Shown piece after piece: positions 32,197 through 59,927 of a stretch of DNA of 64,000 nucleotides (its first letter is position 1; each line of letters opens with the position of its first letter). A program made the position numbers and the translations under genes. Origin of the DNA: Alphaproteobacteria bacterium (GTDB taxonomy: Bacteria > Pseudomonadota > Alphaproteobacteria > VGEJ01); NCBI GenBank assembly GCA_965219135.1, contig CBDCMV010000003.1:2176616-2240615 (forward strand), written 5' to 3'. Under the pieces are notes generated by a model, which worked only from the letters and a program-made list of their open reading frames with translations, was not told the origin of the DNA and did not search any database.

Positions 32197-32335
32197 GACA
32201 CGCCCACAGACTGACCGCGGTCACGGCATCTAGGTACCGCTCCGTTGGGCGGCGCCCTCCAATGTTGATCGGCGTCCAATTTTGACCCCCCTAGGTCCAC
32301 TAAAATCAACGGGCTAGCGTGCTTATCGGCGTCCA

Positions 32336-32935: not shown

Positions 32936-33114
32936 TTCGACAGCACCAGCCCGGATCGCAAAACTCCCTCAAACCCGAACGCTCGGCGGAATCAGGTCTC
33001 GACAGTTACCAATTCAAAAAGTTCTCGACACCACTTATTGCGCTTTTCCATACCTGGCGCAGGAAGAATTTGCCGCAAATGACACCCATCGTCGTGTGTT
33101 GCTGTGCACCTATA

Positions 33115-34860: not shown

Positions 34861-34861
34861 T

Positions 34862-35010
34862 CGGTTCTTCTCGTGTCGGTGATGTGGCTACGGGCTGTCG
34901 AGGGGGGTCGGCCCGGACCGCTGGGATTTGATCGGCGCCTGCGTGGTGTTGATCGGCGCCGGCATCATCCTCTTCGCGCCGCACGGTGCCTGAACGGTAT
35001 CCTCGCAGCA
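34862..35010 (+). pseudogene. EamA/DMT-family transporter C-terminal fragment
   Basis: '...GYGLSRGVGPDRWDLIGACVVLIGAGIILFAPHGA*' terminal TM helix only. It begins exactly at the low-GC insertion junction. Confidence 0.45.
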
Positions 35011-35216
35011 CCCGCGATTCGTTCGGGCGACGGGCCGGTGCCGTTCGGCGCTCGACCGGCGTGCCGAGCGACAGGAAATGATTTCGGCCGTTTCCTTTGG
35101 CTCCGGGGGCATCGCTGGGGCCCGCTTTCTCGGACAAATCCATGACGGAAGGCTCGAATCTCAACCTTCGGCGAACAGTTCCGGGGGCCTAACAATTCGA
35201 AAACCACTGCTCCTGG

Positions 35217-36659: not shown

Positions 36660-37039
36660 TGGCTTTCCCAAAGCGCACGTACGTGCTCCATGTATCGCAA
36701 GGTGTTCTTCGCACCAGACGACCAGTTCGGATGTGGCCGGCTCCAATACTGCCAATCAGACCCGAAGTGCTTGCTATGGCCGGTGCTGGAGTGGATATGT
36801 CCAGTAGGATGCGTTCCATCGGGTTGGTTCTGGTGAATCAGCTTGTGAATATGCGGACCGGACGGCGGCGAAAGCGGGAAGTCGGGCGGGGCAACGATAC
36901 CGATATCGACCTCCAGGCCCTCGTACTTCCCCACTTCGACCCGGTAAGACGGAATCATGATGTGGTGGTCGGGAAGTTCAACGACATCAGTTCCCGCATG
37001 CCGCAACTGATCGGCGAAGAGCGGCGCGCCAACTAGCAC
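36656..37039 (-). CDS. E2/UBC-fold protein without any cysteine (UEV-like), system B
   Basis: 'YRVEVGKYEGLEVDIGIVAPPDFPLSPPSGPHIHKL' UBC-core-like. The protein has zero Cys. GTG start overlaps the Ubl stop by 7 nt. Confidence 0.45.
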   Translation of the reverse strand: MLVGAPLFADQLRHAGTDVVELPDHHIMIPSYRVEVGKYEGLEVDIGIVAPPDFPLSPPSGPHIHKLIHQNQPDGTHPTGHIHSSTGHSKHFGSDWQYWSRPHPNWSSGAKNTLRYMEHVRALWESQ

Positions 37040-38554: not shown

Positions 38555-38982
38555 CCGGAGACCGGAAGAAGATGCGTAACGCGCTGGACCGGCTGGCAGA
38601 TGCTCTTGTGGACGACATCCTCAATGCGTCTGACGAGGAGATTCTGGCCGAAGCCGAAGAGGACGGCGTTGACCCTGCCAGGCTCGCTGGTCGCTTGCGT
38701 GAGGATTTCGAGCGCACGGCTACGGAGGCGGGAAAAGCGAAGCTCGCTGCGGCCAGACGGGGCGCGGCCAATGCCCGGCGATCGGGTGCTCGCGTGGTAA
38801 GGATAGAACCCGCTGATGCGCGGCGCCGCTACGACGCCATGATTGCTCAGGACCCTAAATTGACTGAGAAACTGACACTGGCCGCCCGGAAGGGTGAAGG
38901 CCAGTCCGAGAGCGATATCGACAGCGCCATCGAAGACCTGACCGAACTCGGCGCGTTCGATGCGGAGGACGATGACACGTGA
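38548..38982 (+). CDS. Hypothetical acidic protein (possible anti-sigma or adaptor), coupled between the sigma and the ImmA-like peptidase
   Basis: ATGA overlap with the sigma stop and GTGA overlap with the downstream start. 144 aa with a helical, acidic C-terminus. Confidence 0.4.
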   Translation, partial: VMTGDRKKMRNALDRLADALVDDILNASDEEILAEAEEDGVDPARLAGRLREDFERTATEAGKAKLAAARRGAANARRSGARVVRIEPADARRRYDAMIAQDPKLTEKLTLAARKGEGQSESDIDSAIEDLTELGAFDAEDDDT

Positions 38983-39818
38983 CCTCACTGTCGCCAGCCG
39001 AACGAGTCCTGCGCGACCTGGGCATCACTGATCCAAGCGAAATTGACCTTGAAGCAATCGCCTGGCACTTGGGCGCCCGGATCAAGCGCTGCGACCTGGA
39101 CGGCTGTGAGGCACGCATCATCGGTCACGGTGGCCGCGCGATCATCCGGGTGAACCGTTCGAGCCACCGCCGCCGGCAGCGCTTTTCGATCGGGCACGAG
39201 TTGGGGCACTGGCACCATCATCAAGGCCGGACGCTGATCTGCCGTTCCGAGGACATCGGCAGCCGCAAGCAGGGAACGCCGCAGCTTGAGCGCGTGGCAG
39301 ACGCCTATGCGGCCGAACTTCTCCTGCCGCGATACCTTTTTGTGCCTATTTCTCGTCAATATGCCGAGGCGAGCTTCCGCACGGTGCGGGAGTTAGGCAA
39401 CCTATTCGACGCCAGCCTGACTGCGACCGCCAACCGGCTGGTGGAAAGCCGACATAGCCCGGCCCTGCTTGTTTGCCATGGCCTTGAGGGACGCAAGTGG
39501 TTCGCCCGTTCGACCGATGTGCCCGACAGGTGGTTCCCCCGAGACGACTTGGATCCAGAAAGCTTTGGCTTCGACTTGCTCTTCGGACAGGGACAGGAGG
39601 AGACTCACCCCCGCCTGATCGGCGCCGACGCTTGGTTCGACCGGGACGAAGCAGAACGCTACGAACTTCGCGAGCATTCCGTCCGCACGGGTGACGACGA
39701 AATCCTCACTCTTTTGATGTTGACCGAAGACCGGATGTTGGAGGATTGGGGCTCTGGCGTCGCAAAGGGATCGCGGAGGACGCGCTTCGCCACGAGCTGG
39801 ACGCCATACCGTCGCTAG
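38979..39818 (+). CDS. ImmA/IrrE-family zinc metallopeptidase (COG2856-like)
   Basis: HEXXH 'SIGHELGHWHHH'. Family-typical context 'ADAYAAELLLPRYLF'. Confidence 0.7.
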   Translation: MTSLSPAERVLRDLGITDPSEIDLEAIAWHLGARIKRCDLDGCEARIIGHGGRAIIRVNRSSHRRRQRFSIGHELGHWHHHQGRTLICRSEDIGSRKQGTPQLERVADAYAAELLLPRYLFVPISRQYAEASFRTVRELGNLFDASLTATANRLVESRHSPALLVCHGLEGRKWFARSTDVPDRWFPRDDLDPESFGFDLLFGQGQEETHPRLIGADAWFDRDEAERYELREHSVRTGDDEILTLLMLTEDRMLEDWGSGVAKGSRRTRFATSWTPYRR

Positions 39819-40005: not shown

Positions 40006-40869
40006 TCAATTCGTGCCGGAGGCAGCTGCCCACTGTTTGAGTCCTTCTGCCCACGAATAACGTATTAGTCTACGATCTACGGCGTCTAGTACGTGACCCC
40101 ACGAATAGGTGCCCTCATTTGGAAAAGTTTTCGTATGCGCAGGTACGTTTACCATTGCGAGATATTCGCCGAGGATTCCGACGGCAACTCTGAGTGAGTT
40201 TTGACCCGGGACGAGCACGATTAGCGAGCCCTTCCGATTAGAGCAGAAACTGCGAAGGCATCGAAGTTGCCAATCATTCTCGGACAATAGTCCAGACAAA
40301 TAATGATCGGCCCGCAGTGTGAGGTGGTCGAAACCGTGATTGTGCGACGTATCCTGCAGAGGTGCCATCGAGGGATCTACACCCATAACTTCGCGTAGCT
40401 GTTGGTGATCTACCTCATGGCGAAATAAGTCTCCGTACACGAAATACCCGGCGGCCAATGCTACCTTGGCTGCAAAACGTACCGGCAGGTCGACATTCAA
40501 GGATGCTTGTAATTGTATGCTCTCACCCCCTGTTTTCGTCTCTCTGTCCTGTACATCCCGTAGCCGGATGCCGAGCTTCCGGTGGATGTGTAGCTGGGCC
40601 GGGCGATTTGATTCGCCGTATGTGGCATTCTTCGCGATAGCCCAAGGTTCTTTACCACTATGTCCACGCGCGCCGTACTCCGATCGTCGCAAGGCCACAA
40701 AGAACTCGTTTGCCAGCGCACCGTCGATCGCAGCGCCCAGTGTTGAATTGGCTGTCTTGTCAACCGGTATTTTCAGTTCGTTTACTCCACCCAACGACAT
40801 AGGGATGATATGTTCTGAACTTACTTTCTCTTTTGAAAGATCGCGGTCGGTGTAAGGGCAATAGATCAA
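40006..40869 (-). CDS. HNH endonuclease domain protein (287 aa), low-GC orphan
   Basis: N-terminal 'MIYCPYTDRDLSKEKVSSEHIIPMSLGG' HNH-type Cys/His motif. Visibly AT-richer than its flanks. Confidence 0.5.
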   Translation of the reverse strand: MIYCPYTDRDLSKEKVSSEHIIPMSLGGVNELKIPVDKTANSTLGAAIDGALANEFFVALRRSEYGARGHSGKEPWAIAKNATYGESNRPAQLHIHRKLGIRLRDVQDRETKTGGESIQLQASLNVDLPVRFAAKVALAAGYFVYGDLFRHEVDHQQLREVMGVDPSMAPLQDTSHNHGFDHLTLRADHYLSGLLSENDWQLRCLRSFCSNRKGSLIVLVPGQNSLRVAVGILGEYLAMVNVPAHTKTFPNEGTYSWGHVLDAVDRRLIRYSWAEGLKQWAAASGTN

Positions 40870-44293: not shown

Positions 44294-45079
44294 TTGCCGC
44301 TGATGCTGACCGCGCTGCGTCTGCCGACCTTTGCGAACCTGTGGCCGGCGTTCGCGGACAGGGCCGATCGTGAAGGGTGGCCGGCCGCCCGGTTCCTGGC
44401 CGCTCTGGCCGAGTTGGAGCTGGCCGAGCGTGATCGCCGCCGCATCCAGCGCCATCTCAGGGAGGCACGCCTGCCCATGGGCAAGACGCTCGAAAGCTTC
44501 GACTTCGCGGCCGTGCCAACACTCAGCAAGGCCCATGTCATGGCCCTGGCCGAGGGCGACAGCTGGCTGGCCAAGGGCAACAACATCCTCGCCTTCGGCC
44601 CGCCCGGTGGCGGAAAGGGCCACTTGGCGGCCGCACTTGACCATGCGCTCATCCACAAGGGCTACAGGGTGCTGTTCACCCGAACCACGGATCTCGTCCA
44701 GCGGCTGCAAACGGCACGCCAGAACCTCACGCTTGCCCAGGACGTCGCCAAGCTCGACAAGTTCCACCTGCTGATCCTCGACGACCTGTCCTATGTCCAG
44801 AAAGATCACGCCGAGACCAGCGTCCTCTTCGAGCTTATCGCCGCGCGCTACGAGCGCCGCTCCATCATGATCACCGCCAACCAACCCTTCGGCGGATGGG
44901 ACGGCATCTTCCCGGACAAGGCCATGACCGTCGCTGCGATCGATCGCCTCGTCCATCACGCCGTCATCTTCGAGATGAACGTGGAAAGCTACAGACGCCG
45001 CGCGGCCCTCGAGCGCGCGACATCGAAACCCGACACAGCCAGCGACATCCCAAACGCACAACCGAAAAAGGACACCTGA
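44294..45079 (+). CDS. istB: IS21-family IstB helper ATPase (IS remnant; no istA present)
   Basis: Walker A 'AFGPPGGGKGHLAAAL' and Walker B 'LLILDDLSY'. Confidence 0.8.
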   Translation: MPLMLTALRLPTFANLWPAFADRADREGWPAARFLAALAELELAERDRRRIQRHLREARLPMGKTLESFDFAAVPTLSKAHVMALAEGDSWLAKGNNILAFGPPGGGKGHLAAALDHALIHKGYRVLFTRTTDLVQRLQTARQNLTLAQDVAKLDKFHLLILDDLSYVQKDHAETSVLFELIAARYERRSIMITANQPFGGWDGIFPDKAMTVAAIDRLVHHAVIFEMNVESYRRRAALERATSKPDTASDIPNAQPKKDT

Positions 45080-45345: not shown

Positions 45346-45666
45346 CTATTCGGTCGAAACCTGCGTTTTGGCTTCCTCGAGCAGGCGGGTCATCTCGTGA
45401 CGCACCTTGTGCTCGTCCGTCGCGATCCCTTTGTCGGTCAGGTCGCCGAGCACCTTCCGCAACACATCGGCATCTCCCGGCTCTTCAAAATCGGCGATCA
45501 CGACCTGCTTGGCGTAGGCTTCAGCATCCGCGCCTGAAATGCCCATTTGCTCCGCTGCCCACAGGCCGAGCAGCTTGTTGCGCCGCGCGATGGTCTTGAA
45601 CTGGAACTCCTGATCATACGTGAACTTGGCTTCGGCGGCTGTTTTGCGGTCATCAAAGGCGGTCAT
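45346..45666 (-). CDS. F1-ATPase inhibitor zeta subunit (DUF1476), alphaproteobacterial type
   Basis: 'MTAFDDRKTAAEAKFTYDQEFQFKTIARRNKLLGLWAAEQMG...VVIADFEEPGDADVLRKV' closely matches the Paracoccus zeta-subunit pattern. Confidence 0.75.
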   Translation of the reverse strand: MTAFDDRKTAAEAKFTYDQEFQFKTIARRNKLLGLWAAEQMGISGADAEAYAKQVVIADFEEPGDADVLRKVLGDLTDKGIATDEHKVRHEMTRLLEEAKTQVSTE

Positions 45667-47233: not shown

Positions 47234-48169
47234 CTAGTCGGCCACCAACTCGCGGTATTGCAACCGCTTGCCGTTCATTCCGCGCACGATAGCGGCCATC
47301 TGGTCAAGGGTGTCTTGCTCGCGGACGCCGTGGCGCCCGGCAAACTCGTTGACGTAGCGCTGCAAGTGCTTGGGGCTCATCTTGTGGTAGGTGCCCTTGT
47401 GCGCCCGCTTGAGCATCGACCAGAACGACTCAATCCCGTTGGTGTGTGCCATCCCGTCAACGTACTCGCCAACGCTATGACGCACGCTCGTGTGGTCGAA
47501 GGGTATGCCCTTGTAGGCCGCTGCGTCATCAGTTTAGACGGTCGCGCCCTTGGCGGCGGTGTCAGCGACAAACTTCTGTAGGGTCTTGGCGTCGGTTTTC
47601 TTGGTGACCTTGGCCCGAACCTTGTTCGTCTTGCGATCCTTCGCACCGACAACTGCGGTCTTGCCGACAGTCCCGCGACCGGTCTTGAGCTTCTTACCCT
47701 TGTGCTTATTCCGCTCCTTGCCGCCAAAGTACGTCTCATCAATTTCGACCGGACCGACAAACGGCGAATCATCGCTTTCCCACGCCTTGCGGATACGCTG
47801 GAGCATGAACCATGCTGCTGGCTGGGATACGCCGATGTCCCGATGCAACTTCATGCTCGATACGCCCTTGAGGCTGGTCAGGTGCAGATAAATAGCAAAC
47901 GCCCATTTGCGCAACGGGATATGGGACTTGTGCATCGCGGTCCCGGTCTTGACCGAGAAGTAGCCCCGGCAATCCGAGCACCTATAGGGCATGTTGTTGT
48001 GGCTGGCTTCGTGGGTGCGTGTGCTCCCGCAATGCGGACAGTAACGCCCATCGGGCCAAATGCGAGACTCGAACCAATCGCGGGCGGCGTCTTCTGTTGG
48101 AAACATATCGCAGAGCTGCACCAGCGTGATGCCGTCGCGGTCTGATTTACCGGGTGATGTGTAAGTCAT
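47234..48169 (-). pseudogene. IS1595-family (ISXO2-like) transposase with an in-frame TAA
   Basis: N-terminal Zn-ribbon 'CPHCGSTRTHEAS...YRCSDCRGYFSVKTGT' and C-terminal 'TNGIESFWSMLKRAHKGTYHKMSPKHLQRYVNEF'. TAA at about 47528 lies where this family has a conserved Tyr ('ATV*TDDAAAYKGI'). Confidence 0.75.
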
Positions 48170-48224: not shown

Positions 48225-48750
48225 AACTTATAAGCCCCTTTCGAAAGGGGTTGAGTGGCCGGTGTCGATGTGGTTCCAGGAAGGTTGTTGAGACCGATCT
48301 GGAGCCGCCATGTGGACGCCGACCACCCGAGAGCAGCATAGCCGCAAGGCGCTGCGTTATCAGACTGATTTGACCGATGCGGAGTGGGTTGTGATCGAGC
48401 CTCATTTGCCTCCGGCTCATGGCACGGGACGGCCCCGGTTATGGCCGATGTGAGAGATCATCAACGGCATTTTCTACGTGATTGCGGGCTGGCTGCCCTT
48501 GGCGCTTGCTGCCAAGCGATTTGCCACCGTGGGGCACGATCTATCGCTGGTTCGCCAAGTGCCGCGACGACGGCCTCCTTGAGAAGATCAATCACTCTCT
48601 GGTCATGGCCGATCGCGAGCGGGTCGGACGCGAGGCCAGCCCGAGCGGCGCGATTGTCGACAGCCAGAGCGTCAAGACGACCGAGGCTGGTGGCCCCCGC
48701 GGCTACGATGCGGGTAAGAAGATGCGTCGAAACCGCACGCCGAACAACAC
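48225..48750. mobile_element. IS5-family remnant A (terminal hairpin, disrupted orfA, start of orfB), truncated
   Basis: End motif CCCCTTTCGAAAGGGGTTGAGTGGCC. orfA 'MWTPTTREQHSRKALRYQTDLTDAEWVVIEPHLPPAHG' with in-frame TGA. 'DSQSVKTTEAGGPRGYDAGKK' then breaks off. Confidence 0.65.
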
Positions 48751-48790
48751 CCCACCACCTCCCCGAGCGCAGCTTCGGTGTCGGAATTTG

Positions 48791-51700
48791 TTACGACACA
48801 AATGAACCACGTGGGAGGAGCGGCTTCCACTCCCGCCCGTTCGCCTTCCCCGCAGCCCAAAACACTGGGAGCGTGTTGTTGGGTATTGTATTGTGAAAAG
48901 ATACAAGAGCAGCCATGTTCCCGAAACCCAGCGGGTTCTGTGGTGCAAGCTGTCGTCCGATCTGTAGCATCACGTCCTGTGCGTACGCCCTCTCGCCCTC
49001 GTCTTCGAACATACCGGCGTCTGGGGCGAAGGCCCTCACCTTGTCATCGAACGTGGTCATCGTCAGGACTTGCACCTTTGGGAACTGCTGCTTTATCCGG
49101 CCAATCGCCTCCGGAAACGCCGTCTGCAGGCAGCACACTACCCGACCCTGCTCGGCCAGTTGCGAGAAGAGATCCCGGTCCATCGACCAGAGCCGTCCGA
49201 GCCCCTTCGCGAGCGTGTTCCCTGTCCCCGCGAAGTCGTCCACGACGACGAGAACGGGATCATTGTCGAGACGGCCCTGCACCCAAGTGTACATGCCTTC
49301 GATCGGGCCGCATTTGCCAGGCCCCATGCGCTTGGCGAGCTCCCGGGCGGTAGCGGCGCCGCTTCTCGTTTCCGAGTCCACGTGACCGAGGTAGAGGTTG
49401 TCCTTCCTTCGCCTGAAGATGCGCCACGCACCATCGCCGATGTCCTGCCTCCTCGCGTTGAGCGATTCGTCCATCTTAGCGAGCCCGTTGACGATCGCGC
49501 CGCCATTGACGAACCCGTTTTCGGCGAGCCGTTTCAATAAAAGGAACGCCACCTCGATGCGCCCGTCGTCATCGAACTGGCGTAGCCATCGACGAACTTC
49601 CGCGACGTCCTTCTGTTTTCCGAGGTAGAGGAGGCGCTCCGACACGGACAAGAGCTCGTCCTCGTCGATGGGAAAGGCGGAAGACTCCATGATCGTGAAC
49701 GAGGCCAGCTCCTCGGCAGGGTCCATCGAGGCCAGCTCTTTTTGAAACGCCCGCCAAACCGGCATGAGCTCCGCTTCGCCGTTCTCAAGTAACCAGTCGC
49801 GGAATACCGGGAGTTCCACTTTGCAATCTCGTGCACCGCCTCTTTGCCGAGACACAACTCGCCTGCGCACCAGACCGTTCTCCACCTCCCGGAGATCCTG
49901 TAACGGGAGTCGTTCGTGCTGTTCTAAGCCGAGTTGCCCCTGTGCTTCGACGAGATCGTCGAGCGACTCGTATCCGCCCGAACGCAGCGTCGCAACGCAT
50001 GCGAGGAACAGGCAGTTGTTGGCCACGGACCGCTGCTTGTCGTTGGGATCGAGTACTGGAACATCCTCCCAAAAGTGCGCGAAATTCGTCGGCCCAAGTT
50101 CGCGAACCAGACTACGCCGCACGTAGTCGAAGTCGCTGGTCCCCACGAATGTCCGCCGTTCCTGGGCGCACCGCTGGAACACCTTCCCGCCGACCAGGTG
50201 CATGTAGAAAGGGTTCCCCCGGCAATATTCAACGATTCTCTTAACTGCGGCCGGCTCGTACTCGATCTTGCCGGCTACCGGATCTATTACGAGGGCCTCG
50301 CAATCCGCGTCCACCTCGATTCGGTCCAGCGAACTGTTCACCCATTTATTCAGGTCGGCCGAATGGCTGTCGTAGATGCTGTTCATCCGCTCGCTACCCA
50401 CAAACATGAACGTTAGTCCAACCTCCGAGAGCGAGCGCAGGGCCTTAACGAATTGCTTTCCCCGCTCACCCAGATAGAAGGCGGGATTGAGGTCGTCAAA
50501 CTCGTCGATGATGACCAGCATCTTGCGGTCGGTCTCGCGGGCCAACTCTTCCACGTAGGGAACGAGGCGACCCAGGCCCGCTCGGAATTCATCCTCTTTG
50601 GGGGCTTCGTGCTCGATCCCCAACACGCTTATCAGGCGCGTCGCAATGGTGTGCCCCAGCTGCCCCTCGTGCAGCGACGCCAGTTCGCCCATCCTCAGCA
50701 CGATGCACGCGATGTCCCCGCGTTCGTTCAGCTTGGCCGCAAGTACCTGGAGAACCGAAGTCTTACCGACTCGCTTCTGACCCCACAGGAACGTCGACGT
50801 CTCGTTCGACACGTGAAGCTCTAGCTCCGCGAGGACGGAGTCCCTGCCGTACAGGTCCTTCTTCTCCCGGATTGGATTGATCGCGTAGGGGGGATTCCTT
50901 AGCAGTTCGTCCCAGTCCGGCTGCGTTCGTTGCTGTTCGAACTCCAGGCTCTGCTCGAACCCGAGGCGCGTTCCGTTGGCCGTATGGCATTCCAGAACGG
51001 CCGCCAACTCAAGCGTTTCCTCGCCCGGCGCATTGCTCAGCGTGAGCCGGATCAGGCGCTCGGTGCCGGGCGGCAGATCGAACGGAGTTGAAGGTTCCGA
51101 TGCCGATAGCTCCGCCCTACCGGCGGATGCCCCCAATCGGATGCTTACCGCGTGCGCAGTTCCATCGCCGTCGTTGACCACGCGCGCCGGAAATACGACG
51201 TCTTGGTCGCCTCTGTCGAGATCCAGCTTAAACGTGCCACCGACGACTTGGAGTGCCGGCTTCATCATCTCGTCGCTCGCTTGGGTTCCCTCTTCGATGA
51301 GGCGCGACATGTGCCTGCCCACGGGTTCCAGCACCATCCTCTGGAGTCTATGGTGCAAGTCCTCTCCTAGCCCGTCGGTGGTCCGCTGCAGTTGCCGACT
51401 CAAGTCCCTTGCACGCCTCGGGATTCGCTCCCCCTCGTACTTCTCGCAGCTCTCGCAGAACTTGCGGAACAGCGTTCCGAGCAGCACTTCTACATCCCTG
51501 AGGGTCTGCCGTTCCCCCAGAAGCGCACACGACGCATACGCGTGGGCGTTCTTGATGATGTCCGTGGATGGCAGCTTGGCGGCGACAGGCGTCGATTGGC
51601 AGAAGCTTTCTACTGACTTCTCCAGCGCCGAACTCAATTCCTTCGTCTTGGCCGTGGCCGCGCGCATCGTTGCGGCCGGGCTGATCTTCGCCGGCAGCCC

Positions 51701-52396
51701 GAACAGCGATCGGAGCGGCTCCGCCACCCGATAGTTGATGTCGCCCACCGTCGCGGGAAGCTCCCTCCCCGCGTCCGCCGTCCTGAGCGTTGCATGGACG
51801 ACCGCCAAAGCGAGCAGATCGATCACGAATTTGTCTGCATGCTCCAGCAGATCCCCAATGGTGTTGATCTCGGCGTGGACAGGATTGGACGAGGCCCACT
51901 GCGTAACGATGTTGACGAAAGTCTTCTCGACATCGTCAACGTCCACGGAAGTTAGTTGCGATGCGTACGCCTCCCCGACACCGAGGTTGTCGCCGCTCGT
52001 TCGATACCGGTCGAGAATCGCTTGGAAACCTGCGGCTGCGTCCTCCGGCTCGGCCGCATCTCCGCCGTCGTCCGTGGTGTGACCTTCCGCTTCCGTCATG
52101 TTCTTATCGGCTACTTCAACCAGAAAATTTACCGACGGGTCGCGTGCATTTCCGATGGCCAGAACATCTGGAAAACGTTCTACGAGTTCCTGCATCGTCA
52201 TCCCGTCGTAATCGGATTCCCGAAAACGTCTCCCCGAGCGCTGCAGCAAGCGGTTCTTCAACACACTGAGGTTCATCTTGCGCCAGCCGGGCTTCCCCTT
52301 GACCTTGGCATCCGCGAAAGCTTGCACGAACAGTTCACGCAACTCTTCGTCCTTCTTCTGCTTGCTCAATCCCATTCTCCAAACACTTGTGGGCAT
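48791..52396 (-). CDS. Large P-loop NTPase (STAND/AAA_16-like) protein with a C-terminal phosphoribosyltransferase (PRTase) domain and an about 470-aa N-terminal domain of unknown function
   Basis: Walker A 'FLWGQKRVGKTSVLQVL'. Walker B 'MLVIIDEFDDL'. C-terminal PRPP-binding motif 'VLVVVDDFAGTGNTL'. 1201 aa. Confidence 0.6.
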   Translation of the reverse strand: MPTSVWRMGLSKQKKDEELRELFVQAFADAKVKGKPGWRKMNLSVLKNRLLQRSGRRFRESDYDGMTMQELVERFPDVLAIGNARDPSVNFLVEVADKNMTEAEGHTTDDGGDAAEPEDAAAGFQAILDRYRTSGDNLGVGEAYASQLTSVDVDDVEKTFVNIVTQWASSNPVHAEINTIGDLLEHADKFVIDLLALAVVHATLRTADAGRELPATVGDINYRVAEPLRSLFGLPAKISPAATMRAATAKTKELSSALEKSVESFCQSTPVAAKLPSTDIIKNAHAYASCALLGERQTLRDVEVLLGTLFRKFCESCEKYEGERIPRRARDLSRQLQRTTDGLGEDLHHRLQRMVLEPVGRHMSRLIEEGTQASDEMMKPALQVVGGTFKLDLDRGDQDVVFPARVVNDGDGTAHAVSIRLGASAGRAELSASEPSTPFDLPPGTERLIRLTLSNAPGEETLELAAVLECHTANGTRLGFEQSLEFEQQRTQPDWDELLRNPPYAINPIREKKDLYGRDSVLAELELHVSNETSTFLWGQKRVGKTSVLQVLAAKLNERGDIACIVLRMGELASLHEGQLGHTIATRLISVLGIEHEAPKEDEFRAGLGRLVPYVEELARETDRKMLVIIDEFDDLNPAFYLGERGKQFVKALRSLSEVGLTFMFVGSERMNSIYDSHSADLNKWVNSSLDRIEVDADCEALVIDPVAGKIEYEPAAVKRIVEYCRGNPFYMHLVGGKVFQRCAQERRTFVGTSDFDYVRRSLVRELGPTNFAHFWEDVPVLDPNDKQRSVANNCLFLACVATLRSGGYESLDDLVEAQGQLGLEQHERLPLQDLREVENGLVRRRVVSRQRGGARDCKVELPVFRDWLLENGEAELMPVWRAFQKELASMDPAEELASFTIMESSAFPIDEDELLSVSERLLYLGKQKDVAEVRRWLRQFDDDGRIEVAFLLLKRLAENGFVNGGAIVNGLAKMDESLNARRQDIGDGAWRIFRRRKDNLYLGHVDSETRSGAATARELAKRMGPGKCGPIEGMYTWVQGRLDNDPVLVVVDDFAGTGNTLAKGLGRLWSMDRDLFSQLAEQGRVVCCLQTAFPEAIGRIKQQFPKVQVLTMTTFDDKVRAFAPDAGMFEDEGERAYAQDVMLQIGRQLAPQNPLGFGNMAALVSFHNTIPNNTLPVFWAAGKANGREWKPLLPRGSFVS

Positions 52397-52488
52397 CTAT
52401 GTTTAGGCCACCCGCCACGGATTGCCGCTAACCATCATCGCTCGGGGCTTCCGGGCTCGATACGATTTCTAACGCGGCCGAGTAGCAA

Positions 52489-54109
52489 ATGCCCCCTAGG
52501 AACGAAACTGCCGCGCCGGCCGGTGCGGAGAATAGCACGCTGTATGTTGCGATCGAGATCCGCCGGAAGAGCTGGGTGGTCGGGATCAAGAGCCCGGTGA
52601 ACGAACGGATCGGCTTACATACGATCGAAGCCGCGAACGTCGATGCCCTCCGGGATTTGATTGAGCACCATCGAGCCAAGGCCGAACGGGTTCTCGAGCG
52701 TGAAGCGCGCGTTCTGAACTGCTACGAGGCGGGCTACGAAGGCTTTTGGCTGGCACGCTGGCTCGACGGTGCCATGGCCGTTGAGACGGTCGTGCTCGAT
52801 CCTGCGAGCCTTCTGGTGAACAGGAAGGCGAAACAGCGCAAGACAGACCGGATCGACGCGAAGAAGATGGTGCGTGCGCTGCTGGCGCACGACCGGGGCG
52901 ACGCGGCCGTGTTGAGCAGGGTACGGGTGCCGAGCGTGGAGCAAGAGGACCGCAAGCGACTGCATCAGGAGCGCCAGCGCCTGGTGAAGGAGCGACATCG
53001 TTGACGAACTCGATCAAGGGACTTCTCAAGTTGCACGGCATCTTTGATGTGCAGCCCCGTTCGAAGGATTTCGAGGCGAAGTTCGCCGATGTGAAAACCG
53101 CGTACGGGGAACCGCTCCCGCCGGCGGCCCGGCAGGAGATTCTGCGGATTTCGGAACGGCTGGCACTCGTGGAAGAGCAGATCGCCCAGGTCGAGGCCGA
53201 GCGTGATGCGTTCGTGCTGTCTGGAAAGACGATCTCGATGGTGGATGCGCCCGAGGGAAGTCAAGCGCGGGCGGCGGCGAAGATCGCGGCGCTGACCCGG
53301 CTGAAGCGCTCGGGAGAACTAAGCGCGGTGTGGGTTCCCGACGAGGAGCAGGAGGCGGTCCGCGATCTGACGCGGGCGCGCGAGGATATGAAGGCGATTG
53401 AACTCAAGGCGCGGCAACGACTGGGGGCGTTTTGCTGCGCCACGGGCGGGTGTACCGGGAAGGCAAGTGCCGCTGAACGCAGCAGCACTTTCGCTGGCTG
53501 GAGGAGCAGCGGTTCACGCACCCGGCGCAGCAGGTGGTGTTCCAGGAATACACCGATACGGTAGTGGAGGCCCGCACTCGGGTGGCAGGTCTCGAGCGGC
53601 AGATGCGCGAGGCGCTGACACGGTGGTCGTTACGCCCGGTGGTCGAGGCCCTCATCGCACTGCGGGGGGGTGGATGTGGTTCACGGCGATGACGGTCCTG
53701 GCCGAGCTCGGGGATCTCACGCGCCTTGACTCCCCACGCGAGTTGATGAGCTTTGTGGGGCTGGTGCCGAGCGAGCGCTCCTCGGGCGGAGTTCGGCGCT
53801 GAGGGGGGATTACCAAAAAGGGGCAATGGGCATGTGCGCCGGGTGCTGGTCGAGTCGGCCTGGTGCTATAGGTTTCCCGCGCGCAAAACCAGGCACTTGA
53901 CGCGCAAGGCGAGTGCGCCGCCGCCGGCGGTCCAAGCCATCGCCTGGGCGGCGCAGAAACGGTTGTGCGCGCCGTACCGGCATCTGTATCACGCGGGCAA
54001 GGCGAAGTGTCAGGTCACTACTGCGGTAGCCCGCGAGCTGGTGGGGTTCATCCGGGCGGTCGCCTGCGAGGTGATGGGTCGAGCCCATGCGACACGGGCG
54101 CTGAGCTGA
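52489..54109 (+). pseudogene. IS110-family transposase, copy 1, broken into three frames
   Basis: ORF fragments 52489-53004, 53001-53564 and 53753-54109 together parallel the intact copy at 58737-59927 ('STLYVAIEIRRKSWVVGIKSP...'). Confidence 0.7.
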
Positions 54110-54249: not shown

Positions 54250-55452
54250 TCAGACATTGACGAACCTTTCGCCGAAGATGACGGCGAACTGTGTTTTGGC
54301 CTCGAACCATTCCCGCGGCGGACGTTTCCACGCCTCGGCCGCATGATCGAGAACGAGATATAACAACTTCGAGGCGGCCTCGTCACTGGGGAAGTGGCCG
54401 CGGGTGCGGACAGCGCGCCGGATCTTGGCGTTGAGCGACTCGATGGCGTTTGTGGTGTAGACAATCCTGCGTACCGCCTCGGGGAAGACAAAGAAGGGCG
54501 AGACGTGTTCCCAGTTGCGCCGCCAGCTCTGTGCGATGGCCGGATATTTCTCGCCCCAGGGGCCGGCCTCGAAGGCATCCAGCGCCGCCAGGCCGGCATC
54601 GGCGTCCTTGGCCCGGTATACGTCCCTGAGCGCCTTGGCCACATGTTTTCGATCCTTCCATGACGCAAAATTCATGGAATGGCGGATCAGGTGGACGATA
54701 CAGGTCTGGACCACAGTCTCGGGGAAGGTGGCGTTGATCGCCTCGGGGAAGCCCTTGAGACCATCGACGACGGCGAGCAGGATGTCCTGCACGCCCCGGT
54801 TCTTGAGCTCATTCATGACGCGCAGCCAGAACTTGGCGCCTTCGGTCTGCTCGATCCACAGACCGAGGATCTCCTTGGTGCCATCGGGAAGAATGGCGAG
54901 GGCGATATACACCGCCTTGTTGCGAACGAACCCCTCGTCGCGGATCTTGACCCGGATGGCGTCGAAGAAAACGATGGCGTAGCAGGCATCCAGTGGTCGG
55001 TTCTGCCATTCGCTCACCGCCTCGAGAACGGCATCGGTGACCGTTGAGATCAGGTCCGGTGAGACCTCTATACCGTACAGCTCCTGAAGGTGACCGCGGA
55101 TCTCGCGGACCGTCATGCCGCGGGCATACATGGAGATGATCTTCTCGTCGAAGTCCGGGAACCGGCGCTGGTATTTAGCGATCAGCTGCGGATCGAAGGT
55201 GCCGGCCCGGTCACGTGGAATATCCAGCGTCACCTTCGACGTACCCGTGAGGACCGTCTTCTGCGATCGGCCGTTATGGCGATTGGTTTTTCCATCCGCC
55301 GTTTCCGCATCAAGATGCGCGTCGAGCTCCGCATTCAGGACACGTTCCGACAGCCCTTTCTTCAACTCGTCAAGCAGACCGTCCTGGGTGAATACCGTTT
55401 CCGGATCACGCCCCTCCAACAGCTGGTCCAATAGTTCCTTCTCGATAGCCAT
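54250..55452 (-). CDS. IS256-family (mutator-type) transposase
   Basis: '...ISMYARGMTVREIRGHLQELYGIEVSPDLIS...VYIALAILPDGTKEILGLWIEQTEGAKFW...' is typical of IS256. Confidence 0.85.
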   Translation of the reverse strand: MAIEKELLDQLLEGRDPETVFTQDGLLDELKKGLSERVLNAELDAHLDAETADGKTNRHNGRSQKTVLTGTSKVTLDIPRDRAGTFDPQLIAKYQRRFPDFDEKIISMYARGMTVREIRGHLQELYGIEVSPDLISTVTDAVLEAVSEWQNRPLDACYAIVFFDAIRVKIRDEGFVRNKAVYIALAILPDGTKEILGLWIEQTEGAKFWLRVMNELKNRGVQDILLAVVDGLKGFPEAINATFPETVVQTCIVHLIRHSMNFASWKDRKHVAKALRDVYRAKDADAGLAALDAFEAGPWGEKYPAIAQSWRRNWEHVSPFFVFPEAVRRIVYTTNAIESLNAKIRRAVRTRGHFPSDEAASKLLYLVLDHAAEAWKRPPREWFEAKTQFAVIFGERFVNV

Positions 55453-55727: not shown

Positions 55728-56591
55728 TCAGAGTGCGTGATTTCTTGCAGACACCACGGCTTTGCTCATCTTTTCAATAGCTGCTGCATCGATTTTCCCG
55801 AGCGCATCTTGAGCGAAGTGTTGTCCGGAGACCATATGCCGTAACTCCGCGAGCATCTTGGCCTCCACTTTATCAATCAGCCAGGTGAATTTTCCAAACG
55901 GTAATTCATTGAAATGAGTCAATTCTCGTTCGTCGAGTACGGCAGCTATAATTTCATATGTCTTTTTATCGCTAAACCAGCCGACTACCTTCTCGTCATC
56001 ATTATTGAACATCCCCAAGACAATAAACAGTCGCAAATGAATAGCTCTATAGCAGTTCAAAAGCATCCACAGATATTCACCAACGAAGGGACGAACTTTT
56101 TCCAAGTCTGATGAAATCGTTTGAAGCCTTTCCTTAAGTTCCTCGATCGGACTTCCTTGCAAGAAACTAGCACCCAACTCAGACTCCTTTGCCGCTCTGA
56201 ATTTCTGCGCCTCGGAGTCTTTGAATAGATCTACAATGGACATTGTTGGGAACGTTAGTTTACGTAACTCCAACACTTCGTCCCAAATCTTGTCCGCTGC
56301 GACGAACTTTCTCTCCATCGACGATTTCTGGCCTTCGGAAAACGACGACCTGACAGTGTCAAGAAAAGCTTTGTGGATCTGCAAATCGTTACTCAATCTC
56401 AAATTGGCTTCCTCAATCTGGAGAGCCAGTTTGGCCTTGTGGCTTTCGAGTTGTGTATCAAAATCGTGCTGAATTCCTGATCGGAATCGAGTGACGATCC
56501 ACTCTCGAATGACATTTTTGAACAAAGCGCCCAGTACGAGAATGAGCACAGTGCTGAGAAGCGCTGGCGATACGGCTTCTAGAGCTACCAC
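55728..56591 (-). CDS. Membrane-anchored coiled-coil hypothetical protein (about 288 aa from a GTG start)
   Basis: N-terminal TM helix 'ALLSTVLILVLGALF' then a long heptad-like region. The track ORF N-terminal extension runs into the IS5 remnant and is discounted. Confidence 0.35.
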   Translation of the reverse strand: MVALEAVSPALLSTVLILVLGALFKNVIREWIVTRFRSGIQHDFDTQLESHKAKLALQIEEANLRLSNDLQIHKAFLDTVRSSFSEGQKSSMERKFVAADKIWDEVLELRKLTFPTMSIVDLFKDSEAQKFRAAKESELGASFLQGSPIEELKERLQTISSDLEKVRPFVGEYLWMLLNCYRAIHLRLFIVLGMFNNDDEKVVGWFSDKKTYEIIAAVLDERELTHFNELPFGKFTWLIDKVEAKMLAELRHMVSGQHFAQDALGKIDAAAIEKMSKAVVSARNHAL

Positions 56592-56640
56592 TATTCTTTC
56601 CCTTCGATGATAAATTGCCGTTAATCTACACGATGTGGGC

Positions 56641-57091
56641 CTAACAGGCCGTTTCGAAAGGGGTTGAGTGGCCGGTGTCGATGTGATTCCAAGAAGGTTT
56701 CTGAGACCGATCTGGAGCCGCCATGTGGACGCCGACCAGCCGAGAGCAGCATAGCCGCAAGGCGCTGCGTTATCAGACTGATTTGACCGATGCGGAGTGG
56801 GTTGTGATCGAGCCTCATTTGCCTCCGGCTCATGGCGCGGGACGGCCCCGGTCATGGCCGATGCGAGAGATCGTCAACGGCATTTTCGACGTGATGCGGG
56901 CTGGCCGCCCTTGGCGCTTGCTGCCAAGCGATTTGCCACCGTGGGGCACGATCTATCGCTGGTTCGCCAAGTTCCGCGACGACGGCCTCCTTGAGAAGAT
57001 CAATCACTCTCTGGTCATGGCCGATCGCGAGCGGGTCGGACGCGAGGCCAGCCCGAGTCCTGGATTTGAAAAAATCTGCATTCGCTGCTGA
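56641..57091. mobile_element. IS5-family remnant B (end motif plus intact-looking orfA 56723-57091), 3'-truncated
   Basis: GGCCGTTTCGAAAGGGGTTGAGTGGCC end. orfA 'MWTPTSREQHSRKALRYQTDLTDAEWVVIEPHLPPAHGAGRPRSWPMREIVNGIFDVMRAGRPWRLLPSDLPPWGTIYRWF'. Confidence 0.65.
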
Positions 57092-57563: not shown

Positions 57564-58349
57564 CGCCGGGTCGACGGAGATCGACCTTCTCGTCGAGTCC
57601 GACCTTGCGCGGCCGTTCGCCGGCGAACTTGACCCGGAGCGTGTAGTCCTTCGCCGGCAGCAAGCCCGCCAGCGTCAGCACGCCGTCAGGGTGGCCGCGT
57701 TCTGCCAATCCGCCGCCACGGCCGAAATGGACTAGAGCACCACGCCGATATCGCCCTGCGGCCACCACCCCGGGAGGTTTCGGGGGCGGCCGCTCACGAA
57801 CTTCGCCGCGTGATCGCCGACTCAAACGGAGACAGGAGCGGTGACACCCGCCCGCTGTGGATAACCGGGTTGTCGCCGCCAGACTCTTGGCGGTCACTGC
57901 GCCAACCCGGTTACCTACAGCTCGACCAAGTCCGACACCCCAAACACCGCGTCTGGGGGTACGACCGCACGCTCAAAGTGAGAAATTTTCGATCGACAAA
58001 AGTGGGAAATTTTCAGTCGCAATTGACACCCACCACGCTGACACTCAAATTAGCCCGATCACTCTCAAATCCAGCGCCTCAAAAACGCCTCGTGAGAAGT
58101 CCGGGTCAGAGCAGTGCTTTCGTCTGCCCCATACCCGCTCGGCCGCCCGCCATCACCCGGCCACCCGGCGACCGAACGACCGAACGTGTGTGGACGCCCC
58201 CGTTGATGCAAGCAGTTTTTGGTCGGCTCGGTGCATGCGGTCAGGTGCTGTCGTGTGTCCGGCCTCTCTATGCGGCAGATGACACGCCGCGGGCCCTTTA
58301 TGAGGCGACAACAGTCAAGTGACAAATTGGACTATGGCGTCGGCATACG

Positions 58350-58570
58350 TCGGTCTCCCCGGGTTTCCCGCTCTATGGTTGGTCGTGCCAGGTTCGGAAC
58401 GTCTTCTTGCATCGGTCGCGCGGCAATACGCGTACCCACCTTTTATCCGGCCGGATCCGTCAGTCTCCCCGGGTTTCCCGCTCTATGGTTGGTCGTGCCA
58501 GGTTCGGAACGTCTTCTTGCATCGGTCGCGCGGCAATACGCGTACCCACCTTTTATCCGGCCGGATCCGT
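58350..58570. repeat. 110-bp tandem direct repeat, two copies plus a 9-bp partial third
   Basis: 58350-58459 and 58460-58569 are near-identical ('CGTCAGTCTCCCCGGGTTTCCCGCTCTATGGTTGG...TTTTATCCGGCCGGATC'). Confidence 0.85.
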
Positions 58571-58736: not shown

Positions 58737-59927
58737 TCAGGCGAGCCTGGCGCCTGTCGGCACGAGACCGGTCTCGGAGAACCGCCAGAGGGCGATGAGC
58801 AGCTTGCGGGCGAGCGCCACGATCATCACCCGGCGGATCCGTCCCCGCGCCCCAGCGGTACGCTGTTCAAACCATTCTGAAAGTGCGCTGTCGGGCTGAT
58901 ACCGCACCCAGCGCCACGCCATTTGAATGAGTTGCGCCCGGATCCAGGCCGGGCCATCGCGACCGATCCCCTGGTCCCGTAGCGTGTCCCCGCTGGCCCA
59001 GGGGGTTGGTGTCATGCCGACCCAGCTTGCGAGCTCCCGGCGGTTGCGGAACCCGCGGTAGAAGATCTCGTGGATCAGCAGGGTCGCGTCGTTCTCGCCG
59101 ATCCCCTTCAGCCGGGTCAGCGTCGCGATCTTCACCATCGCCTGCGCGACACTACCCTCCGGGACATCCGCGATCGAGAGTTTTGCTCCCGACTGCGCAG
59201 CCTCGTCTCGTTCGGCCTCGACCTGCACAATCTGTCGTTCCACAAGGGCCAAGCGCTCCGCAAGTCGCAGGATCTCCTGCCGGGCTAACAGCGGAAACGG
59301 TGTCCCATACGCGGTCCTCACTTCGGCGAACTTCGCCTCGAATCCCTTGGCGCGGGGCGCCAGGTCGAAGACGCCGTGCAACTTGAGGAGCCCCTTGATC
59401 GAGTTCGTCAACGATGTCCGTTCCTTCACTAAGCGCTGGCGCTCCCGAAGCAGGCGCTTGCGGTCCTCTTGCTCCACACTCGGCACCCGCACCTGGCTCA
59501 GCACGGCCGCGTCGCCGCGGTCATGCGCAAGCAGTGCCCGTACCATCTTCTTCGCGTCGATCCGGTCTGTCTTCCGCTGCTTTGCCTTCCGGTTTACCAG
59601 GAGGCTCGCAGGATCCAGCACGACCGTCTCGACAGACATAGCCCGGTCCAACCAACGTGCCAGCCAGAACCCCTCGTACCCGGCTTCGTAGCAGCACAGA
59701 ACACGCAACTCACTACCGAGAACCCGTTCGGCCTTGGCCCGATGATGTTCAATCAGAGTCTTGAGGCCCTCAACATCCGCAGCGGCGAGGGGGTGAAGGC
59801 CGATCCGCCCGCCCGCCGGGCTCTTGAGCCCAACCACCCAGCTCTTCCGGCTGATCTCGATCGCGACGTAGAGCGTGCTAGATTCTGCGCCGGTCGGGGC
59901 GGCGGTGATTTCGCTTCTTGCTGGCAT
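58737..59927 (-). CDS. IS110-family transposase, copy 2 (intact)
   Basis: 396 aa. N-terminal DEDD domain 'STLYVAIEISRKSWVVGLKSP' and C-terminal 'VPGIGPI'-type domain. Confidence 0.85.
   Translation of the reverse strand: MPARSEITAAPTGAESSTLYVAIEISRKSWVVGLKSPAGGRIGLHPLAAADVEGLKTLIEHHRAKAERVLGSELRVLCCYEAGYEGFWLARWLDRAMSVETVVLDPASLLVNRKAKQRKTDRIDAKKMVRALLAHDRGDAAVLSQVRVPSVEQEDRKRLLRERQRLVKERTSLTNSIKGLLKLHGVFDLAPRAKGFEAKFAEVRTAYGTPFPLLARQEILRLAERLALVERQIVQVEAERDEAAQSGAKLSIADVPEGSVAQAMVKIATLTRLKGIGENDATLLIHEIFYRGFRNRRELASWVGMTPTPWASGDTLRDQGIGRDGPAWIRAQLIQMAWRWVRYQPDSALSEWFEQRTAGARGRIRRVMIVALARKLLIALWRFSETGLVPTGARLA

Follow-up and report, generated by a model that had tools for sequence, protein, structure and literature searches.

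A candidate single-protein antiphage gene joining an NTPase module to a retron-type phosphoribosyltransferase in an alphaproteobacterial genome

Phosphoribosyltransferases (PRTases) are an emerging class of defense effectors whose true substrate is still not known; they include the effectors of type III-A retrons, ShosT/PsyrT, Ophion OpnC, and DS-32, and every example characterized so far depends on partner genes or on an RNA/DNA hybrid. In type III-A retrons (e.g., Retron-Eco11; PMC7736814, PMC12746101) the effector has a C-terminal winged-helix tail after the PRTase, is accompanied by a reverse transcriptase (RT) and an msr/msd noncoding RNA (ncRNA), and is controlled by multicopy single-stranded DNA (msDNA). 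Hallmark signatures of retron PRTase effectors are a phosphoribosyl pyrophosphate (PRPP) loop and a Gx14PNNxP motif; in Retron-Eco11, mutation of the PRPP loop abolishes defense and activation depletes PRPP, leading to abortive infection (PMC12746101). ShosTA/PsyrTA (PMC11961720, bioRxiv 2022.05.11.491447) likewise uses a PRTase-fold toxin for phage defense, which binds PRPP with an acceptor that is not known; ShosTA has an N-terminal pyrophosphatase domain and a DprA-like antitoxin gene, and is regulated by antitoxin turnover. A further group, comprising Avs/AVAST, bNACHT (PMC13581612), and DS-8 NACHT-effector (PMC13092281) proteins, consists of large single proteins that couple a nucleotide-binding domain, helical domain, and winged-helix domain (NBD-HD-WHD) to a death-effector enzyme. 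Here we describe a gene that has elements of both groups. It lies at 48791..52396, minus strand, in a 64,000-nucleotide stretch of an alphaproteobacterial genome (assembly GCA_965219135.1, contig CBDCMV010000003.1, positions 2,176,616 to 2,240,615; hereafter the window, to which all positions refer). We consider it fairly probable that the gene encodes a stand-alone, single-polypeptide antiphage (abortive-infection) protein in which a sensor, a nucleoside triphosphatase (NTPase) switch, and an effector follow one another, a role that we infer from its domains, relatives, and neighborhoods.

The open reading frame (ORF) is complete, starts with ATG, and encodes 1,201 amino acids; we recovered the same coordinates and length as a preliminary description made from the letters of this DNA. 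The three motifs quoted there were all located by motif scan in the translated protein: a Walker A motif (GQKRVGKTS, aa 539-547; 50756-50782, minus strand), a Walker B motif (MLVIIDEFDD, aa 626-635; 50492-50521, minus strand), and a PRPP loop (VLVVVDDFAGTGNT, aa 1048-1061; 49214-49255, minus strand). There are no frameshifts or internal stops, every family-invariant residue is kept, and in a 40-sequence alignment the C-terminus follows the family consensus up to the last residue. Because about 58 homologues share its length and architecture and the catalytic motifs are invariant in the alignment, sequence comparison indicates that this is a genuine gene, not a chance reading frame. The nearest homologue has 1,194 aa, seven fewer than the window protein; provided that the difference is N-terminal, the true start may be at 52375 (Met8; codon 52373-52375, minus strand), which would also give a product of 1,194 aa. 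From the N-terminus, the domain order is a LOTUS-like domain, a disordered linker, a helical domain, an Ig-like sandwich, an NBD-HD-WHD NTPase, and a PRTase. Two AlphaFold models based on family alignments cover the N-terminal 510 aa (predicted local distance difference test score, pLDDT, 83.5) and the C-terminal 702 aa (pLDDT 80.7).

The C-terminal domain (aa 934-1196; 48809..49597, minus strand) matches the Pfam family PRTase-CE (PF24390) over profile positions 1-253 of 253 (120.4 bits against a cutoff of 27, E=1.5e-34), as do all full-length homologues; in the C-terminal model the PRTase region spans about aa 912-1201. The PRPP loop fits the pattern hhhhhDDxxxTGxT, and in a 13-sequence PRTase alignment D120, T125, and G126 (alignment numbering) are invariant and D121 nearly so. 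A second motif, G1157-x14-P1172-N-N-T-L-P1177 (48866-48928, minus strand), is invariant in the family. The PADLOC comparison proposed in the preliminary description gave strong matches to five retron type III-A PRTase models only (PRTase_III-A; best E=5.7e-26), extending from the PRPP loop to the C-terminus. Together with the PRTase-CE score and the G-x14-PNN motif, these matches bear out the earlier suggestion of a defense-type PRTase at the C-terminus. The motif-bearing G-x14-PNN loop is the sole low-confidence part of the modeled PRTase, which fits a flexible catalytic loop; compare the loop in ShosT that becomes ordered upon PRPP binding (PMC11961720). The PRPP site is intact, and we predict that the domain is catalytically competent. 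Preceding the PRPP loop is a helical subdomain of about 110 residues (aa 934-1046) that is strongly conserved and specific to the family. By sequence, no solved relative of PRTase-CE better than E=0.17 was found in the PDB, and the only two PDB matches, both of them marginal, are aligned on the PRPP loop; one is an orotate PRTase (OPRTase; 2yzk, E=1.1). We found no publication behind the Pfam name PRTase-CE.

Relative to type III-A retrons, the window protein thus shares a homologous PRTase domain with the same PRPP-loop pattern and the G-x14-PNN motif, with one residue more in the latter (PNNxxP versus the published PNNxP), and has no winged-helix tail after the PRTase. In place of msDNA, control would be exerted by the fused NTPase and an N-terminal region of about 500 aa. 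We surveyed the neighborhoods of 8 homologue loci with precomputed annotation and scanned in bulk 149 flanking ORFs from 14 further loci. No RVT-type Pfam domain was present in the 8 neighborhoods or among the 25 most frequent of the 80 families matched in the bulk scan, and the surroundings of the gene within the window showed no RT-like ORF. Nor was there any conserved noncoding flank among 7 loci, and no part of the window matched an Rfam family at gathering score. We therefore rejected an RT or ncRNA partner of the retron kind. By analogy with type III-A retrons, the outcome of activation is probably the same, PRPP depletion and abortive infection.

The ShosTA comparison is similar in that the window system has neither the antitoxin gene nor the pyrophosphatase domain, and regulation would fall to the fused NTPase. 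No DprA-like gene occurs in the inspected neighborhoods, ShosT/PsyrT models are not among the PADLOC matches, and PDB searches gave no sequence match to solved ShosT chains. The PRTase-like antiphage protein DS-32 (NF053875) was also considered and rejected, as the match reaches 20.3 bits against a cutoff of 250 and aligns the last 40 or so residues; the "DS-n" names originate from DefensePredictor (PMC13092281).

PF24390 also has distant stand-alone members of about 285 aa (L028:5018-7719, L030:2917-5937; also L029 and L031), which are 23-32% identical to the window domain, consist of the PRTase without an NTPase or N-terminal region, and have conserved partner genes of their own. The cassette, whose PRTase-CE proteins are 23-28% identical to the window domain, consists of a ParB_N protein, the PRTase-CE protein, and a Dam-type (D12) methyltransferase, and was seen on two unrelated contigs, on one of them beside a prophage-like block. 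It may represent a separate, undescribed conflict or DNA-modification system.

This cassette raises the question of what the PRTase does with PRPP. The same NTPase-gated role in immunity or conflict could be served without a PRPP drain if PRTase-CE phosphoribosylated a specific target (a base, nucleotide, nucleic acid, or protein) or made a toxic or signaling nucleotide. Recurrence of the ParB_N-PRTase-CE-Dam arrangement in unrelated contigs suggests DNA-directed chemistry, ShosT binds PRPP with no acceptor among the common purines (PMC11961720), and the conserved helical subdomain at aa 934-1046 could be an acceptor-binding hood. On the other hand, PRPP was the most discriminating depleted metabolite in the only direct measurement on a retron-type PRTase with the same motif (PMC12746101), and in the window protein no nucleic-acid-binding domain other than the WHD of the NTPase module adjoins the PRTase. 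We consider target-directed chemistry unlikely and favor PRPP consumption.

The center of the protein is an NTPase module (aa 511-860) composed of a P-loop NBD (aa 511-689; 50330..50866, minus strand), identified by Pfam and the model, and a helical lid (aa 696-766) and winged helix (aa 784-860; together 49817..50311, minus strand), identified from the model and Foldseek. In the model the NBD has a five-stranded parallel sheet, and with the lid and WHD that follow it forms a tripartite NBD-HD-WHD module. A connector (aa 863-933; 49598..49810, minus strand) leads to the effector and comprises a long helix (model residues 364-391, aa 863-890), a flexible linker (low pLDDT at model residues 393-407), and the beginning of the helical subdomain of the PRTase. 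Pfam AAA_22 is matched above its gathering score (E=2.6e-8), AAA_16 and ATPase_2 weakly and below theirs. The nSTAND1 match is also weak (17.5 bits against a cutoff of 27.1), and one family member (P0079) passes that cutoff at 29.5 bits. A PDB profile search returned an NB-ARC protein at E=0.009. With Foldseek, the NBD-HD-WHD module aligned over 370-430 columns to 2qen, Cdc6/ORC, RuvB, the wheat NLR (nucleotide-binding leucine-rich repeat) resistosome 9h2l, and MalT (8bob). The best match, 2qen (the archaeal ATPase_2 protein PABY2304; E=9e-10, TM-score 0.65 on the target, 395 columns), and Cdc6/ORC have a GR[DE] motif before the P-loop but no LOTUS-helical-Ig region or PRTase, at a sequence identity of only 12-16%.

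Signal transduction ATPases with numerous domains (STAND) are reportedly distinguished, in the signature set of Leipe et al. from 2004, by hhGRExE before the P-loop, a doubly acidic Walker B motif, and an Arg-containing sensor-1 strand. In the window protein, Walker A and Walker B are invariant in the 40-sequence alignment and two further motifs, LYGRD (aa 515-519) and FVGSERM (aa 665-671), are present. The G and R of LYGRD are invariant, the second E of hhGRExE is absent, IIDEFDD is doubly acidic, and R670 of FVGSERM is invariant. This set is compatible with STAND but also with ORC/Cdc6-like AAA+ proteins. The NBD-HD-WHD architecture does not discriminate either, since Cdc6/ORC-type AAA+ proteins share it. 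The module is best described as an NTPase of ORC/Cdc6-STAND type, within which the modeled fold gives no clean assignment to one or the other. The tripartite module is in keeping with the STAND-like NTPase originally proposed, although its assignment to STAND rather than ORC/Cdc6-like AAA+ is not clean.

The sole match outside the family in the full-length search was a 1,330-aa protein (P0060) with N6_Mtase, Eco57I, and Methylase_S domains and an AAA_16 NTPase that aligns with the window NTPase region at E=9e-8 and 23% identity. It suggests that this NTPase lineage has also been fused to type I restriction-modification modules.

Like the antiviral STAND proteins, the window family is horizontally mobile, occurs in defense islands, and is built by modular domain shuffling. 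Avs proteins have an N-terminal effector and a C-terminal, often TPR-like, sensor, an order that is reversed here, with the presumed sensor at the N-terminus and the effector at the C-terminus. TPR, WD40, and LRR sensors are all absent, and neither the Pfam scan nor the C-terminal model revealed a repeat-type sensor after the WHD. No PADLOC Avs/NLR model matched the window protein; matches to the NTPase region were limited to mad8 (E=2e-4) and PDC-S01 (E=6e-3). The main text of the STAND survey by Lee et al. 2026 (PMC13581612) does not mention a PRTase effector. By sequence, the window protein is outside the retron, ShosTA, DS-32, and PADLOC Avs families.

The N-terminal region had been described as about 470 aa with no recognizable motif. 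That description does not hold: we identified a LOTUS/OST-HTH-like domain, an all-helical domain, and an Ig-like sandwich, with a linker between the first two. The LOTUS-like domain is a small alpha/beta domain (aa 12-91; 52124..52363, minus strand) that weakly matches Pfam OST-HTH (PF12872; aa 13-81, E=0.0038, 17.5 bits, below the gathering score of 23.8). One family member (P0070) reaches 22.2 bits, and two stand-alone relatives exceed the cutoff (P0135, 24.8 bits; P0136, 24.7 bits). In the model, the H-E-H-H-H-E-E order of elements (pLDDT about 75-89) is compatible with the LOTUS fold; no LOTUS structure was among the Foldseek top 50 for the N-terminal model. An acidic, disordered, hypervariable linker follows (aa 96-118; 52043..52111, minus strand; pLDDT <50, identity 0.14). 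The helical domain (aa 119-377; 51266..52042, minus strand) has about 13 helices, with pLDDT mostly >90, and constitutes a candidate sensor or regulatory domain. Foldseek against the PDB and BFVD (viral models) gave generic helical matches and no specific structural relative for it. The Ig-like beta-sandwich (aa 382-488; 50933..51253, minus strand) was identified by Foldseek, which matched it to PapD/ASH-type and sialidase carbohydrate-binding-module sandwiches. The Foldseek comparison suggested earlier for this region was accordingly productive for the sandwich and not for the helical domain. PADLOC and NCBIfam models matched neither the N-terminal 510 aa nor the stand-alone LOTUS module.

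Scoring an N-terminal profile (aa 1-510) against 1.84 billion representative proteins gave 564 matches in three tiers. The first tier comprises full-length family members. In the second, the match begins at about residue 100, the same NTPase and PRTase-CE are present, and the first domain is absent or replaced (P0082, P0090, P0094, and P0079; the LOTUS-like domain is absent in the first three). The third consists of hundreds of proteins of about 270 aa that match aa 2-90 alone (E about 1e-20). These small proteins combine the LOTUS-like domain with a second conserved region, which is the same as an insertion of about 110 aa retained in the divergent members P0050, P0052, P0053, and P0055 at the place of the linker (aa 96-118). 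In this search, the helical and Ig part co-occurs only with the same NTPase and PRTase-CE. A pre-existing LOTUS module appears to have been captured whole at the N-terminus, and its second half appears to have been reduced to the disordered linker in the subfamily of the window gene. Tblastn of the LOTUS-less loci (L017, L020, L021, L023, and L024) found no separate LOTUS-module gene, so a split system in these members was rejected and the module is taken to be optional.

The stand-alone LOTUS-module proteins (P0133-P0208 and P0313-P0420; e.g., L033:7001-7894 and L034:7001-7828) occur in Streptomyces, Acidobacteriota, Gemmatimonadota, and others. Their second conserved region reads R.DLW...SG..Y.WD...LP...W...F, and the whole module is fused at the N-terminus of the divergent NTPase-PRTase members named above and of L022:2439-3137. 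One stand-alone gene lies in a Streptomyces region resembling an integrative and conjugative element (ICE), ahead of an overlapping 275-aa gene, and another lies amid housekeeping genes; no consistent context was seen in the loci inspected.

Mean pairwise identity across the family is 0.76 for the NBD (the most conserved domain), 0.73 for the HD, 0.69 for the PRTase, 0.58 for the helical domain, 0.56 for the WHD, 0.55 for the LOTUS domain, and 0.49 for the Ig-like sandwich (the least conserved folded domain). The catalytic parts are thus the most constrained and the N-terminal region, the Ig-like sandwich above all, varies most freely, as would be expected of a surface used for recognition. 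On this pattern, the sandwich is the leading candidate for contact with a ligand. In eukaryotes, LOTUS domains bind RNA or DEAD-box helicases, and Pfam describes OST-HTH/LOTUS as a domain predicted to bind RNA. Phage helicases are the trigger of Retron-Eco11 (PMC12746101). The parallel between the two is a lead to which we attach no weight.

From these features we propose the following mode of action. At rest the protein would be a closed, nucleotide-bound monomer with an inactive PRTase. An infection cue would be recognized by the variable N-terminal region, through the helical and Ig domains, assisted in some members by the LOTUS module, an optional accessory that may bind nucleic acid or a helicase. 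Recognition would lead to nucleotide exchange and NTP-dependent oligomerization via the NBD-HD-WHD module, which would bring PRTase domains together in pairs. As the dimer is typically the active form of type I PRTases, pairing would switch on catalysis. The active PRTase would then use up PRPP, either by transfer to an acceptor that we leave unspecified or by hydrolysis. By analogy to Retron-Eco11, loss of PRPP would starve nucleotide and NAD synthesis, phage replication would stop, and the cell would be lost.

A search of a 5.8-billion-protein collection yielded the homologues mentioned above, which are 46-92% identical and nearly all 1,150-1,300 aa long. Their precomputed Pfam annotation is the same (PF24390 and PF13401), and they are without a name in every source. 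The relatives occur only in metagenome-assembled genomes (MAGs) and metagenomes, from about five phyla; assignments include Pseudomonadales, Ectothiorhodospiraceae, Alpha- and Betaproteobacteria, Bryobacterales, Thermodesulfobacteriota, Desulfatiglans, Desulfobacterales, and Gemmatimonadota. Identity remains 68-79% across phyla (Pseudomonadales, Bryobacterales, and Thermodesulfobacteriota MAGs), which indicates horizontal transfer. With the insertion sequence (IS)-bounded locus described below, this agrees with the original suggestion of horizontally acquired cargo. Some copies appear to be decaying. In L019:5556-12159 some 1.7 kb of additional sequence, which includes a 468-aa ORF and looks like an insertion, lies between the LOTUS part (5556-5813) and the rest (from residue 242, at 8001). 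L013:8001-11366 and L018:8001-10878 are N-terminally truncated, with matches starting at residues 76 and 240.

Homologues often sit among defense and mobile-element genes. One is directly followed by a type I-C CRISPR-Cas system (L001), and another is accompanied by a complete type II CBASS, DndB, and a type I restriction subunit (L006). Other neighbors are ThsA_Macro and a PhdYeFM antitoxin with IS elements (L003), a RES toxin and Mrr (L004), a PLD/NgoFVII-type nuclease with integrases and IS elements (L005), a metallophosphatase with AAA_27 (L007), integrases, an XRE regulator, and Multi_ubiq (L026), and a serine recombinase with a ScoMcrA-type HNH nuclease (L027). The bulk scan of 14 loci added Dnd/Pbe, AbiEii, PD-T4-6, PDC-S11, mad2/HNH, integrases, transposases, a DNA methylase, and housekeeping genes. 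The survey of homologue neighborhoods that had been recommended thus found RES, Mrr, PLD and McrA-type nucleases, Dnd/Pbe, and AbiEii among the neighbors. The gene had been described as single, and in the 8 annotated loci no neighbor is shared, nor does any family recur more than 2-3 times across the 149 flanking ORFs, in agreement with that description. Upstream ORFs of about 230-250 aa at L026, L003, and L004 were considered as a hidden partner and rejected, as they are not mutually homologous and form no recurrent family.

A nonimmune role has to be weighed against these neighborhoods. The gene could be a maintenance or addiction module of mobile elements, a factor in competition between elements, or an ATP-regulated enzyme of nucleotide metabolism that travels with IS and integrative elements. 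Transposases, integrases, or recombinases occur at every locus, several neighborhoods otherwise hold housekeeping genes only, no defense-specific HMM (hidden Markov model) recognizes the NTPase or the N-terminus, and the family is known from MAGs alone. However, CRISPR-Cas, CBASS, Thoeris ThsA, restriction nucleases, Dnd/Pbe, or Abi genes adjoin the gene in most inspected loci, and there is no conserved antitoxin-like partner, which an addiction module would need. Operons for purine/pyrimidine salvage or ComF, which the preliminary description had named as the context that would speak against defense, were not observed at any inspected locus, and genes for salvage, de novo nucleotide synthesis, or competence do not recur; homologues at these loci adjoin CRISPR-Cas, CBASS, ThsA, and nucleases. 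The PRTase itself belongs to the retron-effector clade and not to the metabolic PRTases, with OPRTase matches in the PDB at E>1. A nonimmune role is, on balance, very unlikely.

Several points nevertheless weigh against an immune function of the kind we propose. PADLOC gives no Avs or other NTPase-system match; nSTAND1, AAA_16, and ATPase_2 all remain below gathering score for the window protein; and the closest folds are those of archaeal ATPase_2 and ORC/Cdc6 proteins instead of a characterized antiviral STAND. A C-terminal effector with no repeat-type sensor is the reverse of the characterized Avs proteins, and the sensor role of the N-terminal region is pure inference. The acceptor substrate of defense PRTases is not known even for ShosT (PMC11961720), and the pairing of stand-alone PRTase-CE with ParB_N and a Dam-type methylase hints at nucleic-acid-directed chemistry. 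Searches of 72,556 plasmids and 50,697 phage genomes gave no full-length relative, and all homologues come from MAGs or metagenomes, none of them named. The association with defense islands, judged by locus inspection, is real but not exclusive, because many of the neighborhood genes are housekeeping genes. Finally, the window copy may be unexpressed, a point that depends on its immediate surroundings.

These surroundings consist of IS debris. The IS5, IS1595, and IS110 remnants of the preliminary description were all identified by Pfam, as were an IS256 element and an IS21 IstB gene (44294-45079). Downstream of the gene are an IS1595-family transposase fragment (47534-48169, minus strand; DDE_Tnp_IS1595 and Zn_ribbon_IS1595) and a truncated IS5-family fragment (48233 to about 48764, plus strand), whose DUF4096 ORF (48482-48805) overlaps the final 15 nt of the gene. 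A second direct copy of the IS5 fragment (56646-57057, plus strand) repeats its first 413 bp (48233-48645) at 95-99% identity. The two copies bracket an 8.4-kb segment with the gene, the IS110 remnant, the IS256 element, and a 375-aa ORF, an arrangement like that of a composite transposon. Immediately upstream is the IS110-family remnant, with two ORFs (52489-53564, plus strand; weak DEDD_Tnp_IS110 match); part of it (52507-53306) is an inverted, diverged copy (78-82%) of 59106-59906 in an intact IS110 element (58737-59927). Beyond it is an intact IS256 (Mutator-family) transposase (54250-55452, minus strand; Transposase_mut, E=5.8e-143), with best matches of about 75% identity on Azospirillum plasmids. 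The gene lies in the lower-GC, IS-rich half of the window, where two CBASS-type E1-E2 proteins, a Schlafen/AlbA_2 protein, and matches to capP, HEC-05, mad2, and RmrA models (detailed below) are also encoded and add to its defense context.

By blastn, the unit shared with the loci of the closest relatives (L026 and L027) is 48764..52470 (minus strand; 90% DNA identity) and includes only the gene, 74 bp upstream, and 27 bp downstream. IS DNA therefore abuts the gene at both ends. A scan of 48500-52800 limited to sigma-70 consensus sites found no sigma-70-like promoter, and with so little native upstream DNA remaining the expression of this copy is uncertain. It could be a silent passenger, an intact ORF stranded between IS fragments without a promoter and kept only because the rearrangement is recent. 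The end of homology 74 bp before the ATG, where the IS110 remnant begins, would fit this explanation, as would the promoter scan, the IS5 overlap at the 3' end, and the decay of other copies (L019, interrupted by about 1.7 kb; L013 and L018, truncated). But the ORF is uninterrupted over its full length, with all invariant residues and a consensus C-terminus, no frameshift or stop being present. IS elements often supply outward-reading promoters, and the promoter scan covered sigma-70 consensus sites alone. We regard a silent copy as rather unlikely.

Several other features of the window were recorded. The 375-aa ORF (55728-56855, minus strand) was matched by no Pfam, PADLOC, or NCBIfam model, and its GC content at third codon positions is low (0.51). 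Because its 5' end enters the second copy of the IS5 fragment, translation probably begins further downstream. Amid the IS debris lies a complete gene for ATPase inhibitor subunit zeta (45346-45666, minus strand; PF07345, E=4.6e-41); this family is known mainly from Alphaproteobacteria and hints at the lineage of the host. A 110-nt tandem duplication is present at 58338-58557. The PADLOC scan of the window ORFs also returned two CBASS-type E1-E2 proteins and single-ORF matches to the HEC-05, mad2, and RmrA models. One ORF matches the capP model (a CBASS-associated metallopeptidase regulator, E=2e-61), for which 38979-39818 (plus strand) and 40006-40869 (minus strand) are candidates by their HExxH motif. 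At 29679-36755, a 557-aa Schlafen/AlbA_2 protein (33115-34788) has a ThiF-domain protein on either side (29679-31334 and 35217-36755, both minus strand). The GC content of this patch is 0.51-0.53, the two E1-E2 matches are presumably these ThiF proteins, and no cyclase was identified; it may be an unusual ubiquitin-like or CBASS-derived defense locus. A block at 14524-23761 is ICE- or plasmid-like in appearance and encodes a 1,406-aa Strawberry-notch-type helicase (AAA_34 and Helicase_C_4; 14524-18744), a 544-aa ParB_N protein (20201-21835), and a DUF2201 metallopeptidase/VWA-like protein (22352-23761). A 1,148-aa Calx-beta/fn3 protein (9406-12852) is encoded in the high-GC (0.70-0.74) part of the window.

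The preliminary description had suggested an undescribed STAND/AAA-PRTase defense protein, and each part of that interpretation that could be checked is supported. The fusion and its front end are indeed new, but the effector itself is not, because PRTase-CE is already a Pfam family. Judged from sequence, the novelty lies in the combination of an NTPase switch with a retron-type PRTase, in the reversed domain order, and in the helical-Ig, sensor-like region with its optional captured LOTUS module. We found no description of an NTPase-PRTase fusion in a literature search that included the main text of the 2026 STAND survey. Current defense-annotation tools recognize only the PRTase half of the protein, and the family has so far been seen in uncultured bacteria alone. 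More tentatively, and with some doubt, we suggest that these proteins constitute a family of immune receptors, not described before, in which a single protein of reversed polarity combines a new N-terminal sensor, an ORC/Cdc6-STAND-type NTPase, and a retron-type PRTase. In such receptors the helical and Ig sensor, with its optional LOTUS module, would detect phage nucleic acid or a helicase.

If this is true, NLR-like bacterial receptors would gain a new effector and a new sensor fold, in a domain order reversed relative to Avs. It would also mean that a protein switch can control a PRTase effector of the retron type, with neither reverse transcriptase nor msDNA involved. A self-contained NTPase-PRTase protein would be a simpler system in which to study both activation logic and PRTase chemistry, and would provide a tractable, one-gene route to the acceptor and chemistry of the defense PRTases.

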